A DNA stretch of 63,004 bases, counting the filler, from Aduncisulcus paluster (lineage: Eukaryota), in the NCBI GenBank assembly GCA_024181965.1. It is 22 parts of 22 records of this genome, joined end to end, with 100 filler letters (N's around TTAATTAATTAA, not from the genome) between each part and the next. Parts side by side here need not be neighbours in the genome. Positions count along the whole stretch, not along the records: positions 43,854 to 49,948 come from BQXS01000321.1; 21 more parts are not named here. The stretch is one strand, 5' to 3'. Both the position numbers and the translations under genes were made by a program. The notes under the pieces were generated by a model, which was given only the letters and a program-made list of their open reading frames with translations, did not search any database and was not told where the DNA came from. Below are positions 43,854 through 57,603 of this stretch, piece after piece. Within the stretch, counting starts at the first letter, position 1; each line of letters starts with the position of its first letter.

Positions 43854-44494
43854 AGCTGATTCTCGATAATATCAATCGATTGCAAAAAAAATTCAATTTA
43901 GATAAGTTACCCGTGGATGAGACGTCTAGAATACAAACATTAGTGGATAATTGGGCCGAGATCTTCCCATTATCGGCAAAACGATTTTGGAGAAGAGAGA
44001 AATTTGGAGGGACGATAAGGAGGGATAAGTATCCCATGAAGTATGCTTCCACACTTCTGAAGAGGGCCAAAAAAGAACAAAAACAGCTGTTGGTCTGCTA
44101 TGGGGACTGTGGACGAGCACACCTGGGTAGAGATAAACCATTTAAAGCCACATATAATGGCTATAGATCTACGTCCAGTACCTCTTCCTTTCCGAACAAA
44201 TTAAAACAAACAGTTCAATCAAGAGGGGGTATATTCATTGAAGTTGATGAATACCATACGTCCAAGTTGTGTCCATGTTGCCACAATGAATTGTCAACGG
44301 TCGATGAAAAAAGGCGAATGAGAAAGTGTGGAAAGTGTGGTTTTGAAGGCAATAGGGACTATTCAGCTGCATATAATATTGCTATTCTTGGACTAAAAAA
44401 ACATTTTTGCCAGCCTTTTCCATCAGCTTTCATACGTCCGAGTTCTTTGGATGATCATCATCCTGTAGATGATCTACAAGCTTTTTCTCCTTAG
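43854..44494 (+). CDS. Fanzor1-type (TnpB-derived) RNA-guided nuclease, C-terminal half; 5' truncated by the contig edge
   Basis: LVCYGD (Gly at the canonical RuvC-II Glu position), VDEYHTSKLCPCC, CGKC, NRDYSAAYNI (RuvC-III), P.AF.RP tail. Confidence 0.88.
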
Positions 44495-44521
44495 TTATAC
44501 TATTTTTTACTATTTTTTTCG

Positions 44522-44587
44522 CACCGGTACTGATAACCTACTTGTAGGTAGTCGGACCATGGTGGTTTTGGCAATCTTTTGCCAAAC
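44522..44587 (+). ncRNA. Candidate Fanzor omegaRNA scaffold (core hairpins)
   Basis: Long stem-loop 44522-44564 with G-U pairs favouring the + strand, then TTTGGCAA-TCTT-TTGCCAAA; GC-rich island 27 nt after the Fanzor stop. Confidence 0.6.
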
Positions 44588-45139
44588 AATGATTTCTTTA
44601 TTCAACAAGTGAAACCAGATTATTTCTTAGGTATATCAGCAATTTTAATTTTTAGGTATATTTTTTGATTGTTTGAATCTATTTTATTTTCGTTATCCAT
44701 CTCAGAATCAGTAAAATTGAGTTTTGAATTTCAAACTCTGGCATGGATATATATATGAAGATATATTAAAAATGAATTTTTTGATATGAAGAGTTATTGT
44801 AAAGTACATTAAATTTGCCGTTATGCAAAAATACCCGTCTACAGCGGATTTAAACTCAAACTTCGACTTTCCTTGCATACATATACTCTCATCTGCACAA
44901 AATATGAAATTATTCCTGTTGACTGGTTCCATAGGCACTGGAAAATCTACAGTAGCCAAAATTCTTGCAAAGAATGGTGTTAATATCATTGACTGCGATT
45001 CCATTGTTAGAGAGCTTCAAAAACCAGGCCAACCAATTTGGATGAGTATAAAACAGAAGTTTGGAGAAGAGTATNNNNNNNNNNNNNNNNNNNNAACTTC
45101 GACTTTCCTTGCATACATATACTCTCATCTGCACAAAAT

Positions 45140-46390
45140 ATGAAATTATTCCTGTTGACTGGTTCCATAGGCACTGGAAAATCTACAGTAGCCAAAATTC
45201 TTGCAAAGAATGGTGTTAATATCATTGACTGCGATTCCATTGTTAGAGAGCTTCAAAAACCAGGCCAACCAATTTGGATGAGTATAAAACAGAAGTTTGG
45301 AGAAGAGTATTTTGATCCAAAGTATGTTTTCCCTTTATAGATAACCCTTTTTCACTTGTCTTGAAAATTCAGCTGATAGTTAATTTTATTGCATTTATTT
45401 CACCCATTTTATCTTTTCTTTTGATTTATCCTTATTCCTATTTCTAATTGATTGCTATTTCCCCAATATAGAACCCATGAAATTGACAGAGAAAAACTCG
45501 GTCAACTGGTCTTTGCTAATCCTTACAAATTGAATGAATTAAACAGAGTTTCTCATCCCCATGTTTTCCGAAAAGTAGCCTCTCTTATTTTCAAAGAATG
45601 GAGTGTTAGTCCTACAGCTTCCAAAATGGTTTGTGTGGATATTCCTTTGCTTTATGAGAGCAAAATACACATTCCAAGAACAGATTTATGTCATTCTTGC
45701 TTTGCTATCGATCAATTTGAGGCTCAATTAATGTCTCATCGCCTTGCTCAGCAAGAAGAAGCTAGAAGGGAGAAAGAACGTATCTATGCCACTAAAAGGC
45801 TCGAAGAGCTCGATATTGAAGAAGCAAAAGAGAAGGAAGAAGGCAGTGAAGGCACGATAGCTCAGAAGAAGAGAGATGCCGAAAGGAAAGCATTGAAGAA
45901 GACCCTTGCCAAACCATCACGCACTGAGATAGAATTATTGACTTGTAAAGCCAGAGCATCCAGAATGGAAGAATTATCTGTAATTTCACACACTCCAGAG
46001 CCTCATGTTTATGATATTCTTCGCCATGCCCCTATGGTGACCGTTTCTTGTTCCAAAGAGCAGCAATTGAGTCGTCTCATGAAGCGAAACCATCTTTCTG
46101 AGGAAGATGCTCTTAAAAGAATACATTCTCAAATGGATATTGAAACTAAGGCTCGACTTTCTGACTTTGTCATTGATAACTCGGGAAGTATGGAGATGAC
46201 CGAAAGAGTTGTGAATGAATTTGTGAAATCTGATGAAATCTTCGAAGAAATTGAATCGATTGCGGCCAAAAAGAGAGGAGAGAGAACAGTAATTGGTGAT
46301 GTTGTCCGTAATTCCTCTCTTCCGATGATAATTGGGGGGATCGGTGTTTTAATTGGAGTTGTACTATCCGTGAAAAAGTTCTTGGTATAA
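45140..46390 (+). CDS. coaE: Dephospho-CoA kinase; exons 45140-45321 and 45472-46390
   Basis: [60 protein letters not shown]. Confidence 0.93.
45322..45471 (+). other. Spliceosomal intron (150 nt)
   Basis: GTATGT...TTCTAAT...TATAG; removal restores [14 protein letters not shown] of DPCK. Confidence 0.9.
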
Positions 46391-46636: not shown

Positions 46637-48910
46637 ATGGATATTGATGCTGATCTTCTCAAGATAGATGACATTGATCTCGATAGTCTCTTAAAAGATG
46701 CAAACGAGGCAACTCATTCCGTTGAAGAGGAACTTTTATCTGCCTTGAAGGTTGAAAAAGCAGAATCTGAAGAAAAACGACCTGAAATAACCTTAGGCCT
46801 TCAAGAATTCGATATTATTGATATCAAGCCTCAGAAACCCCAAAAAACTGCCATTTACGAGAAAGGAACTTCCACAGACCCCGCTATTACTAAAGAACAA
46901 GATTTATTTATAAATGAAAAATATTTTAACCCCAGATCTCCCTCTATCCATGCTGAGTCCGCCGATTCAAAAGAGGATGAATATGAGACGAAAAGTTATG
47001 AAGGCGAGACAAGCGAAGAGCATGAAATTATTCCATTACTCTCAGAAGAAGATCTTCGTCATCCTCTCGACTCTATGATTCCGACTTCCCCTCGAAAACA
47101 TGACCGATCCTCTGTATCTTCTGATATCCCATTTGAAGACACTGCAAGGTATTTGAAAGCAATTCCACCATTAATCCCTCAGGAAGACATTGGACATTCG
47201 TACGAACTGTTTGATCTTGCAGATAAGAGTCGTCGTGTGTCATGTGTGAGTTTTTGTGATCGGGGAGTTGCTGTTGCCGTGGTCGGTATCACTGAGAAAG
47301 AAGGTCGTTGGAGAAGTGGAGATCGTATTGATCCGAAAGAAAGATCCGTATATATTGTTCCTACTCACCCTCTCCCGTCTTCTCACATGTTTGAGGAATT
47401 GGAAGGAGATATGGACATTTCTGCGATCATTCATTCGTTGCCAACTCCTGATATCTGCACATGCTCATCAAAACACGTCATACAGTACATTTCTCCATTC
47501 CCACTGACAACTCTCACCGCTGAGAATAGATTTTTATACTGCGGATGCATTAACGGAGAGGTTGTTGTTTTTGATATGATGTCTCAACTTGTTCAACCAT
47601 CTAAATTTAGTTCTTTCTCACATCATGGTGTCGGTCCCGTCTGTTATCTTGGACTTGATGACGATCAAATCACGGCTGTTTGTACCGATTGCTCAGTAAT
47701 CGTATTTAACAAGACACGCTTCCCTGCTCCCGTCAGTATCAATAACATTGACTCGACGGAGACCATTCCTCATGTATTATCCTCAGCTTCCATCTTGATA
47801 ACTGGAACTTTGTTGTTGAGTGAGGAAATATGTCAGAAACAGAGTATCCTGAAGGAGGACCAATCCAAGGCGCATTTCTTGTATAGAAACCATCCTTCTC
47901 TTCACGACAGGTTCGATGAACGTACAAACAAAGCTGAAGTCGTTTGTGGTACAGTTGATGGTCNNNNNNNNNNNNNNNNNNNNGTCAGTATCAATAACAT
48001 TGACTCGACGGAGACCATTCCTCATGTATTATCCTCAGCTTCCATCTTGATAACTGGAACTTTGTTGTTGAGTGAGGAAATATGTCAGAAACAGAGTATC
48101 CTGAAGGAGGACCAATCCAAGGCGCATTTCTTGTATAGAAACCATCCTTCTCTTCACGACAGGTTCGATGAACGTACAAACAAAGCTGAAGTCGTTTGTG
48201 GTACAGTTGATGGTCGAGTTCTTTCTGCACATAAATTTGATACATTAGGGAGCGATAGCATTGCGACTGGAACGTCTTTCCCTTTCTCTTTCGTGCCTGT
48301 GATCGTCTCTTTCTCCTCTCCTTCATTGCCAATGTGTGTTCGTGGATTGGGTGGCATTGCATGTTTGTGTGGATGTGAGGGCGAGGGAATTATTTGGGGT
48401 TGTTCAGAAGAAGATAAGGACCGTTCTTGCGTCGATGTGATGAATTCTGACGGTAGAATAGGATATAGAGCTATGACAGATGATGTGATATCAGAATCAA
48501 AACACTCTCATAGCAACTTTATCAAATTCTCGGTTTCTGGCGGTATTGTCACGGCTGCAGAATGGCATCCATATGGGCTACCGTTGATTTGTTTTGCTTT
48601 ATCCTCTGGTGAGGTTCTGATTGTTGATGTTGCCAGTGTGATCTCTGAAACGCGTGAAAGTGAGAGAAAAGGATACGAGGACGTTATTGTTGATGTTGCT
48701 GACCACGCCATATTCCGCAAAAAGCTATCAGATAGAGACCCAATAATCTGTGTATCTTGGCGAAATAAGAAACATCAGGGAGATTGGAATGAACTTGCCG
48801 TGGGTTGTTACAGTAATGTTCACCTTATCCGAATCCATTCGTATTCCCTATATCAATACGTGAAGATGGATTGGGAAAAGTTGGTTCAAACCTTGGTGGA
48901 ATCCAGTTAG
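46637..48910 (+). CDS. Divergent cytoplasmic dynein intermediate chain-like WD40 protein (contains an artefactual duplication at a gap)
   Basis: YEKGTST resembles the light-chain binding site; GCINGEVVVFD, CTDC, VCGTVDGRV and EWHP...SGEVLIVD follow dynein IC WD40 order. Confidence 0.6.
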   Translation: MDIDADLLKIDDIDLDSLLKDANEATHSVEEELLSALKVEKAESEEKRPEITLGLQEFDIIDIKPQKPQKTAIYEKGTSTDPAITKEQDLFINEKYFNPRSPSIHAESADSKEDEYETKSYEGETSEEHEIIPLLSEEDLRHPLDSMIPTSPRKHDRSSVSSDIPFEDTARYLKAIPPLIPQEDIGHSYELFDLADKSRRVSCVSFCDRGVAVAVVGITEKEGRWRSGDRIDPKERSVYIVPTHPLPSSHMFEELEGDMDISAIIHSLPTPDICTCSSKHVIQYISPFPLTTLTAENRFLYCGCINGEVVVFDMMSQLVQPSKFSSFSHHGVGPVCYLGLDDDQITAVCTDCSVIVFNKTRFPAPVSINNIDSTETIPHVLSSASILITGTLLLSEEICQKQSILKEDQSKAHFLYRNHPSLHDRFDERTNKAEVVCGTVDGXXXXXXXVSINNIDSTETIPHVLSSASILITGTLLLSEEICQKQSILKEDQSKAHFLYRNHPSLHDRFDERTNKAEVVCGTVDGRVLSAHKFDTLGSDSIATGTSFPFSFVPVIVSFSSPSLPMCVRGLGGIACLCGCEGEGIIWGCSEEDKDRSCVDVMNSDGRIGYRAMTDDVISESKHSHSNFIKFSVSGGIVTAAEWHPYGLPLICFALSSGEVLIVDVASVISETRESERKGYEDVIVDVADHAIFRKKLSDRDPIICVSWRNKKHQGDWNELAVGCYSNVHLIRIHSYSLYQYVKMDWEKLVQTLVESS

Positions 48911-55335: not shown

Positions 55336-57603
55336 ATGTCTTTTTCACGGATAAAATCACTCACAAGCTCGTTTCTTTTTTCCCAGTTCAAATCGTGCAA
55401 AATTCAGATATTTGTTGATACTCACGATAAATCAATTGGTTCTAAATTCCGTTTTTTTGAATCATCTTTTAGAAGAGGTTGTAGATCATATGATATACCG
55501 GAGACCAATGTTATGGTTTCTCCCCTTGAAAATGCAATTTTGAAAAAGAAAGATGAGACCCATGATTCACTTATAGAGCAAAATGCATATTTTGTTTTTG
55601 TTTTACCACTTGAACGAATCAAGAATATTTCAACCATTCTGGCAGCAGTTCCGACTTCAAATTTTCCTTCTACTTTCCTTTTTTTCTCTAAGTTTTCATG
55701 TTATATGTTAATTTCAACTCCATTCTTAACCACAAATCTTTCTCGTCCGTTTTCTCGTTTATCATATCCTTATGCTTCTCTCTGGTTGAGTGGTCTATCT
55801 TCCGGACAAAGTGAGTCCGAATCACTCAATATCTTCATTGGCGATTCTTCATCTTCTGTTTTATCTCAAAACAAACTTCTTTCAATTTTCTATAAGCCAC
55901 AGAAATATTTTGAAGTCAAACTTGATGATTGTATTCGTTTTTCACGCAATATTTCCAAAGATACCGTTGTTATGAAAGATATTAAACAAGAAAAAGTTGA
56001 TATTTCTGTTGAATGTGGTTGTGAAAGCCCTTTATGTCGACTTTCTTCATTTTTAAGACAACCATACCATAATTTCCCTTCTATGTGTGTTAGCTATTTA
56101 CATATATATTGGAATGAGTTCAAATCTTTTCCTATTTTCCCCTTACAGTCATTTTCGAATCTGTCTCTTCTCTCTTCTCTCGTGACTTCTTCTTCTCATC
56201 TCTCAATTTCATCAATTTCAAGAGAATTCCTTGCCAAGTGCGATGATTCCTTCTTTGGAGCATATGGAAATGATGACATCAAATTCATTTCATCGTTGTT
56301 TAAAATGGATGTGTCTGCACTGTCAGCTTATATTGATGAAGAAAGAAGCATCGAATCGAATATTTCAAAGCTTTCAAAAGGGATTGAAGAAGAAGAACAT
56401 TGTAAATTGCCACATCCAAGGGGGCTTAAGGAAGAGGATGAATGTAGTGATTGCGTGGATAATGGTGTAGTGTTCTCGCAGTTTATTGGCAAAGAGAGTT
56501 GTTTATTGCAATTGGCGATGCATGTTAGAGTTGAAAAGCATGGATCTTTCGATGACACTGTTCAAACAGTGATATCAGATGATGAAATTGATCGATCGAA
56601 TGAAATTGATAGGAATACTCTTCAGTTAACTCCCTCGTTTATTGCTCTATGTTCACAGTCGTTGCTGACTTTGTTGATAAAACTTCGCTGCGGGNNNNNN
56701 NNNNNNNNNNNNNNATGTTAGAGTTGAAAAGCATGGATCTTTCGATGACACTGTTCAAACAGTGATATCAGATGATGAAATTGATCGATCGAATGAAATT
56801 GATAGGAATACTCTTCAGTTAACTCCCTCGTTTATTGCTCTATGTTCACAGTCGTTGCTGACTTTGTTGATAAAACTTCACTGCGGGATTGAAATATATG
56901 GAGATGCCTGGAAACTTCAACACGGCGGCAATATCGAACATCTTGATACAAGATCCAAAAAATAATCGCTGCCTTTGAGCGTGAGATTGTTTCAGCTCCC
57001 AAGAAGAAAGACGATCTCTTTGGGGTTGAAAAGAACACTGGCCCCTTCCAACCCTCGAGACCATCCTCTCTCCCCCTCTTCTCTGTTGACATTGGTTCTT
57101 CCCGCAAGGAGATGATTCCCGTGTGGCCCCCATCCATCGGTGAGATTGTTGAGCCCATTGTTGACACTGCGGTGTGTGTGATGCCCATCTCTGACGAATT
57201 CCAGCACGTGAATGAGGGAGTGCGTGCCAAGCTGTGCAGTGAAGAGCATGATGTGCATGGAGATAATGCGATGAGTGGAGGCGACGAAGCGAAGGACAAA
57301 GTTGAAGGGGATGATGTGATTGAGGAGGAAGACCACAATGCCCAGACCACATCGCCCACTCAGACCCAAGACAACAAAGATGACGAGGAAGAGGGCCATG
57401 TTCTCAAGAGTCGTCACAAACCGTCCGAAGTGCTTGAGCCTTTCAACTTCAGCTCCATCTCTCAGATGAATGCTTCCTACTTACACATGCTGAGTGAGAT
57501 CAGGGGGGTGTCTGTGGATGAATTGATTGAGAGCATCGATCCTTCCGTGTTCTCCCTTGTGTACGAGCTGTTCAACGTTCTTTCAATGGGAACAATGGGA
57601 TAA
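55336..57603 (+). CDS. Hypothetical protein (gap duplication and a probable homopolymer frameshift at 56957-56962)
   Basis: Consecutive + strand ORFs join after removing the duplicate and adding one A. Confidence 0.5.

Follow-up and report, generated by a model that had tools for sequence, protein, structure and literature searches.

A multicopy two-hairpin module behind a Fanzor1 reading frame of Aduncisulcus paluster as a candidate omegaRNA scaffold

The right end of a mobile element was located at approximately position 44584 of the analyzed window, a 63,004-nucleotide stretch of Aduncisulcus paluster DNA (GenBank assembly GCA_024181965.1), where it falls on the last pair of a short terminal stem. 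The element probably carries a Fanzor1 gene, and its segment at approximately 44519 to 44584 probably serves as an omegaRNA scaffold with a guide taken from the flanking DNA, the extra copies of the segment belonging to ghost or sister elements. We infer the omegaRNA role of this module from its fold, the Fanzor1 open reading frame (ORF) ahead of it, its multicopy state, and its 3' boundary. The window consists of short contigs strung together with N-spacers, and both the module and the ORF lie in the contig at 43854 to 49948.

A. paluster is a free-living relative of Giardia. It is classified as a free-living fornicate, and its draft genome comprises 25,863 contigs with an N50 of 4.6 kb (PMC9933649, in part). 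The ORF on the + strand at 43856 to 44494 extends for 212 codons without a stop, its 5' end being cut by the contig start at 43854, and judged by its sequence it belongs to a Fanzor1 gene, of which it forms the 3' part. It matched PF07282 (E 2e-15), corresponding to a TnpB/Cas12-like RuvC and zinc-finger C terminus, and it contains the bridge-helix region, the RuvC-II glutamate (VDEYHTS), a CxxC..CxxC zinc finger, and the RuvC-III aspartate (NRD, at 44354). The glutamate (E132) and D168 were invariant in all four aligned rows, and the four cysteines were kept. A shifted RuvC-II glutamate (Ealt) is a signature of Fanzor1 (PMC10711439, in part), and the position of the shifted glutamate was mostly occupied by P in the TnpB-type matches. 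The Foldseek matches were Cas12f, Fanzor, and TnpB, with the clades not separated, the input alignment being mostly TnpB-like.

The assignment to Fanzor1 was deduced from the nearest relatives. The single long protein match to the ORF was an NCBI gene model from A. paluster (100% identity over 84% of the ORF), and the closest relatives among 128 matches were P0003 (42% identical) and P0004 (46% identical). P0003 is listed as a protein from A. paluster and by eye is near-identical to row 1 of supplementary file 3 of Saito et al. 2023, with P0004 falling within row 2. That file holds three A. paluster rows, all labelled FZ1 (PMC10432273), and the assignment follows from this label; the subfamily of the window ORF is absent from the three rows. 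The DPG (RuvC-I) and TDG (WED) motifs and the shifted glutamate are all found in P0003, the DPG/TDG region of the window ORF lying upstream of the contig start and its RuvC-I aspartate off the contig. A Fanzor2 identity was considered and dropped because the relatives carry the FZ1 label and because these three features occur in P0003. Close relatives of the family were found neither in viral contigs nor in phages, and the metagenomes held only four related loci, all distant.

Several observations concern the gene models and the assembly around the ORF. In the public gene model P0002, the Fanzor tail is joined to the following gene, a dephospho-CoA kinase (ATG at 44904), by way of a predicted intron (GT at 44436 to AG at 45169-45170; window positions 44436 to 45170) that swallows the whole module, and this fusion is probably a mis-annotation. 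The second A. paluster Fanzor row in the table of Saito et al. is likewise fused, to malic enzyme. Contigs from the two runs described below reach 314 bases upstream of the window contig start, so that more of the Fanzor gene exists, and extra partial copies among them cover approximately 44060 to 44300. A direct duplication of about 215 bp flanks a 20-N scaffold gap (44859 to 45074, and from 45095), with a similar arrangement at 47964 to 47983; the duplication looks like an assembly overlap artefact.

All data on copies come from the contigs of two public runs (X1 and X2) of one sample, possibly the source of the window's own assembly. Contigs were placed on 43855 to 45074 at 80% likeness (54 + 40 records), and what follows on individual contigs refers to the pieces listed (16 of 94). 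Depth was summed over overlapping contigs as a rough guide to copy number, meaning "order of ten or more copies," and reached 27966 and 22563 in the X1 bins covering 44511 to 44592 versus 1270 on the single-copy right flank. The corresponding sums for X2 were 8341 and 4091 versus 683, with no cover beyond 44592, a feature given no weight here. The summed depth rises about 20-fold at approximately 44514 to 44584, and the module outnumbers the ORF tail about tenfold, the X1 depth of the latter (2665) being about twice single copy. An X1 contig at 2.1 times the flank depth runs from 44278 in the ORF to 44553 in the module, and a contig leaving the module into the window's own flank has a depth of 1230 (0.97 times the flank depth). 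Since the twofold depth seen over the ORF tail is lost within the module, the repeated unit holding the ORF tail was deduced to stop there.

The exact position of the end was deduced from contigs that run out of the module into other sequence. Loose ends were found behind 44584 in at least two X1 contigs (mutual agreement only 0.62) and at least one X2 contig and, among the pieces listed, behind 44586 in both runs. At least four different flanks follow the module, including that of the window, with AA, AA, TC, and TA as their first two bases. Because two different flanks begin at 44585 and another diverges after 44586, the last common base is A44584, which may itself be part of a target-site duplication. 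The preliminary description had placed the element end at 44587 to 44605, which must be revised since the copies stop at 44584 and the flanks differ from 44585 onward. Its suggestion to find where conservation among copies drops proved productive, as a sharp 3' boundary was seen 90 nt past the Fanzor stop codon. The last pair of the terminal stem falls at this boundary, and a G+C island ends there as well.

On the left side, loose ends were found before 44514 in at least three X1 and at least four X2 contigs and before 44516 in at least one X2 contig. Ahead of 44514, 14 bases from the X2 contigs, compared by eye, match 44499 to 44512 at 13 of 14 positions (the T-run is one base shorter); these bases fall in an A/T-rich leader on the + strand (44499 to 44519). 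Further upstream, at least two other neighbours were seen, giving at least three different upstream neighbours in all. The left end of the element is not in the window contig, and no 15- or 20-nt terminal match representing an inverted-repeat partner or left end was found elsewhere in the window; the listed loose ends showed no terminal repeat partner either. The window holds no second copy of the module, and no substitutions between module copies were present among the pieces listed. Searches with the module gave no match in phages and one chance 29-nt match in plasmids. In X1, one copy ends behind 44567 and another behind 44573, so that the long hairpin is kept and the terminal hairpin lost; the sequence behind 44573 starts with a small perfect palindrome.

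Fold prediction reproduced every pairing that had been proposed for the long and terminal hairpins, at the same bases and with the G-U pairs included. The long hairpin (44522 to 44564, + strand) has a 7-bp basal helix, bulged by 2 nt on its 3' side, followed by two helices of 5 bp each and a CUUG loop. Its 17 pairs had pair probabilities of 0.80 to 1.0, with G-U pairs at 44531-44554 and 44534-44551. A 4-nt linker predicted at 44565 to 44568 (+ strand) leads to the terminal 6-bp hairpin (44569 to 44584, + strand), which closes on A44584, the last base common to the copies. This hairpin had been described as an 8-bp stem at 44567 to 44586, and such a stem is present in the window, but only its inner 6 bp (44569 to 44584) are common to the copies, the outer two pairs being made with flank bases. 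The description of a GC-rich island was borne out by a G+C content of 49% versus 8% at 44495 to 44519 and 22% at 44585 to 44700.

The stability of 44520 to 44584 was compared with dinucleotide shuffles on either strand. The + strand gave -26.2 kcal/mol (z = -3.96), with 0 of 500 shuffles as good, and the minus strand gave -20.0 kcal/mol (z = -2.81), with 3 of 500 as good. The + strand is thus favoured by RNA energies, whereas with DNA energies the strands are about equal (-12.1 versus -11.6). Equally stable 65-nt folds were found in 8 of 23,630 stretches of the window (both strands, step 5), from five places that include the module. The most stable 65-nt fold of the window is at 56996 to 57085 on the minus strand (-34.9 kcal/mol). 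Two further 6-bp hairpins had been proposed within the ORF end (44449 to 44478, + strand). These do exist, but they are weak (z = -1.8; 23 of 500 shuffles as good), show no strand preference, and lie outside the high-copy part, the X1 depth over them being 2665, equal to that of the ORF tail. They are at most a 5' extension in full-length copies.

The position and form of the end were calibrated on viral Fanzor loci, of which 67 were collected and 66 were usable (including L001), with the end motif present in 43 of the 66. The distance from the RD motif to the end was 202 to 260 nt in 36 distinct viral Fanzor1 ends and is 231 nt in the window. An end at 44587 to 44605 would fit this spacing too, so the spacing supports the region rather than the exact base. 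A stem of at least 6 pairs closing within 4 nt of the end was found in 32 of 37 viral ends versus 168 of 600 random stretches (28%), and the window has such a stem for ends at 44584 to 44590. Many giant-virus Fanzor1 elements (L012-L071) have one end motif in common, and in their folds a short hairpin precedes a long terminal stem; in many viral ends, a further hairpin forms ahead of the last two. An nhmmer profile built from 37 viral ends gave no match at the module, and no Rfam family was found there, the three chance-level matches (E >= 0.29) being far below gathering scores. A loop-like hexamer seen by eye in SpuFz1/PpFz1 and L001 was rejected as a marker, since it occurred in sense in 7 and in antisense in 12 of 62 distinct loci (71 loci minus 5 without motif or stop and 4 duplicates). 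A likeness of the module to the L001 3' region was likewise discarded, as 400 of 2000 shuffles scored as high. The window contains no guide target with fewer than two mismatches.

Comparison with characterized omegaRNAs showed both likenesses and differences. The omegaRNA of SpuFz1 is 88 to 90 nt long, with a 75-nt scaffold of two stems, a 6-nt linker, and a 14- to 15-nt guide from the flank, and about 80 nt separate the stop codon from the element end (PMC10432273, in part). In the Spizellomyces punctatus genome, 134 ghost Spu-1 loci were counted versus 42 with the gene (PMC10432273, in part). The window resembles this system in that a conserved non-coding stretch of similar size (90 nt, versus about 80 nt in SpuFz1) separates the stop codon from the right end, in its two stems and linker, and in that the end is present in more copies than the gene. 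By eye, both have a last stem with UGG at its start and a closing U-A pair that abuts the variable flank, and the first or basal helix in both has seven pairs and a 3' bulge. In contrast, the short 7-bp SL1 of SpuFz1 comes before a long terminal stem that is built from a 30-nt inverted repeat, whereas in the window the 43-nt hairpin comes first and the 6-bp terminal stem last, the linker is 4 rather than 6 nt, and no inverted-repeat partner was seen. The GUCG that touches the protein from the SL1 loop in SpuFz1 is predicted to be paired in the module, where opening it costs 8 kcal/mol.

In three Fz1 structures, SL1 has seven pairs and a short loop contacting RuvC/TNB, and the second stem of PpFz1 has four pairs (PMC11423790, in part). 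The PpFz1 RNA of Parasitella parasitica resembles the module in part: its scaffold is likewise very small and its second stem minimal (4 bp in the structure), but its SL1 is a 7-bp helix with a short loop, whereas the basal 7-bp helix of the window bears a 10-bp extension. In Fanzor1 elements, the guide is immediately preceded by a last double-stranded stem, which is made up of the terminal repeat and the target-site duplication (PMC10711439, in part). The giant-virus Fanzor1 elements with a Mariner-like end motif (L012-L071) share with the window the RD-to-end spacing and a terminal stem closing at the end, but their terminal sequence is unrelated and their terminal stems have 15 to 26 pairs rather than 6. 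None of the omegaRNAs in supplementary file 5 of PMC10432273 is from A. paluster. The hairpin order and short terminal stem, unlike those of SpuFz1 and the viral ends, and the pairing of GUCG speak against the scaffold reading, as do the lack of a viral-profile or Rfam match at the module and the two copies without the terminal hairpin.

Of the alternatives, a longer omegaRNA with the same end, starting in the ORF end and including the hairpins at 44449 to 44478 (the full span of the preliminary description), is considered unlikely. It has a precedent in GtFz1, whose 150-nt RNA overlaps 17 codons (PMC10432273, in part), and it would be in keeping with the extra upstream hairpin of many viral ends; the ORF tail, which ends DDHHP where P0003 has DLHHP, could also reflect an RNA constraint. 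Such an RNA would, however, have to span about 40 nt of unstructured T-rich DNA between the ORF-end hairpins and the module, and the high-copy depth begins only in the bin 44511 to 44551, with loose ends before 44514 and 44516. The shuffles and the missing strand preference also weigh against a role for the ORF-end hairpins. An improbable alternative of another kind is that the hairpins are the transposase's DNA signal, either a Helitron2-like 3' hairpin or a palindromic terminal repeat, with the guide RNA differently organised or lost. The two hairpins differ in this respect, as the terminal one is purely Watson-Crick and forms on both strands, whereas the long one depends on G-U pairs and RNA energies. 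Helitron2 elements carrying Fanzor1 do end in hairpins (PMC3627910, in part), and the lack of a terminal repeat partner in the window or the listed loose ends also favours a signal of this type. The two roles are nevertheless compatible, since the terminal sequence of published Fanzor1 elements also serves as the scaffold (PMC10711439, in part).

Different upstream neighbours, seen in at least two copies, would also suit a free-standing short repeat (SINE-like, MITE-like, or a small-RNA gene family) lying behind the Fanzor ORF by chance. The roughly tenfold excess of the module over the ORF tail, the at least three upstream neighbours, and the lack of profile likeness to known omegaRNAs would all agree with such a repeat. 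This explanation is nonetheless regarded as very unlikely because the twofold depth of the ORF tail stops in the module, which lies at the spacing typical of Fanzor1 element ends, and because no tRNA was found in the window and no Rfam family at the module. As to the carrier of the gene, a separate observation was made on P0006 (1846 aa), whose front and middle parts are of Fanzor1 type (37% to the window ORF). Behind them lie a weak match to a tyrosine recombinase (PF00589, E 0.04) and, judged by eye, a stretch resembling SET. The arrangement may point to a Crypton-like carrier or to a fusion in the gene model.

Under the preferred reading, in which the module is the omegaRNA scaffold at the right end of a Fanzor1 element, a + strand transcript starting at approximately 44519 would cross the element end. 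It would fold into the long first hairpin, the short linker, and the 6-bp terminal hairpin closing on the last base of the element, and would continue for about 15 nt into the flank, which would act as the guide. With the element end at 44584 rather than 44587 to 44605, the guide would start at approximately 44585, and the predicted guide of the window copy is 44585 to 44599 (+ strand), its length being taken from the 14 to 15 nt of SpuFz1. Fanzor1 with this RNA would then cut DNA matching the flank beside a TAM, that is, the empty insertion site. Cutting of flank-matching DNA next to a TAM has been shown for SpuFz1 and TnpB. Module copies found beside other neighbours would represent either sister elements or non-autonomous (ghost) ones, bearing other guides. 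What stands of the original proposal of an omegaRNA at the right end is the multicopy module with its sharp boundary, while the position of the end and the inclusion of the ORF-end hairpins do not.

The design itself, with a right-end scaffold, a flank guide, and ghost copies, is already known. Among the matches listed, no paper linked Fanzor with A. paluster or its group, and A. paluster is not named in the available parts of the main text or supplements of PMC10530073 and PMC10711439. The literature record of this Fanzor1 family was found only as the three protein rows in one supplementary table (PMC10432273), and a Fanzor1 guide-RNA end has apparently not yet been mapped in the metamonad lineage. 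We tentatively raise the possibility, itself rather doubtful, that the module is a new type of Fanzor1 guide RNA (extended first hairpin, 6-bp terminal stem, approximately 66-nt scaffold), the first mapped in Metamonada, and that its at least ten dispersed copies, mostly detached from the ORF, supply one or a few nuclease genes with different guides in trans. For a divergent Fanzor1 family of a metamonad, the present analysis adds a right end resolved at base level and a candidate for a compact scaffold. The defined end makes the RNA directly testable, and the family offers a small natural scaffold as well as a second case for asking if ghost copies supply guides in trans.
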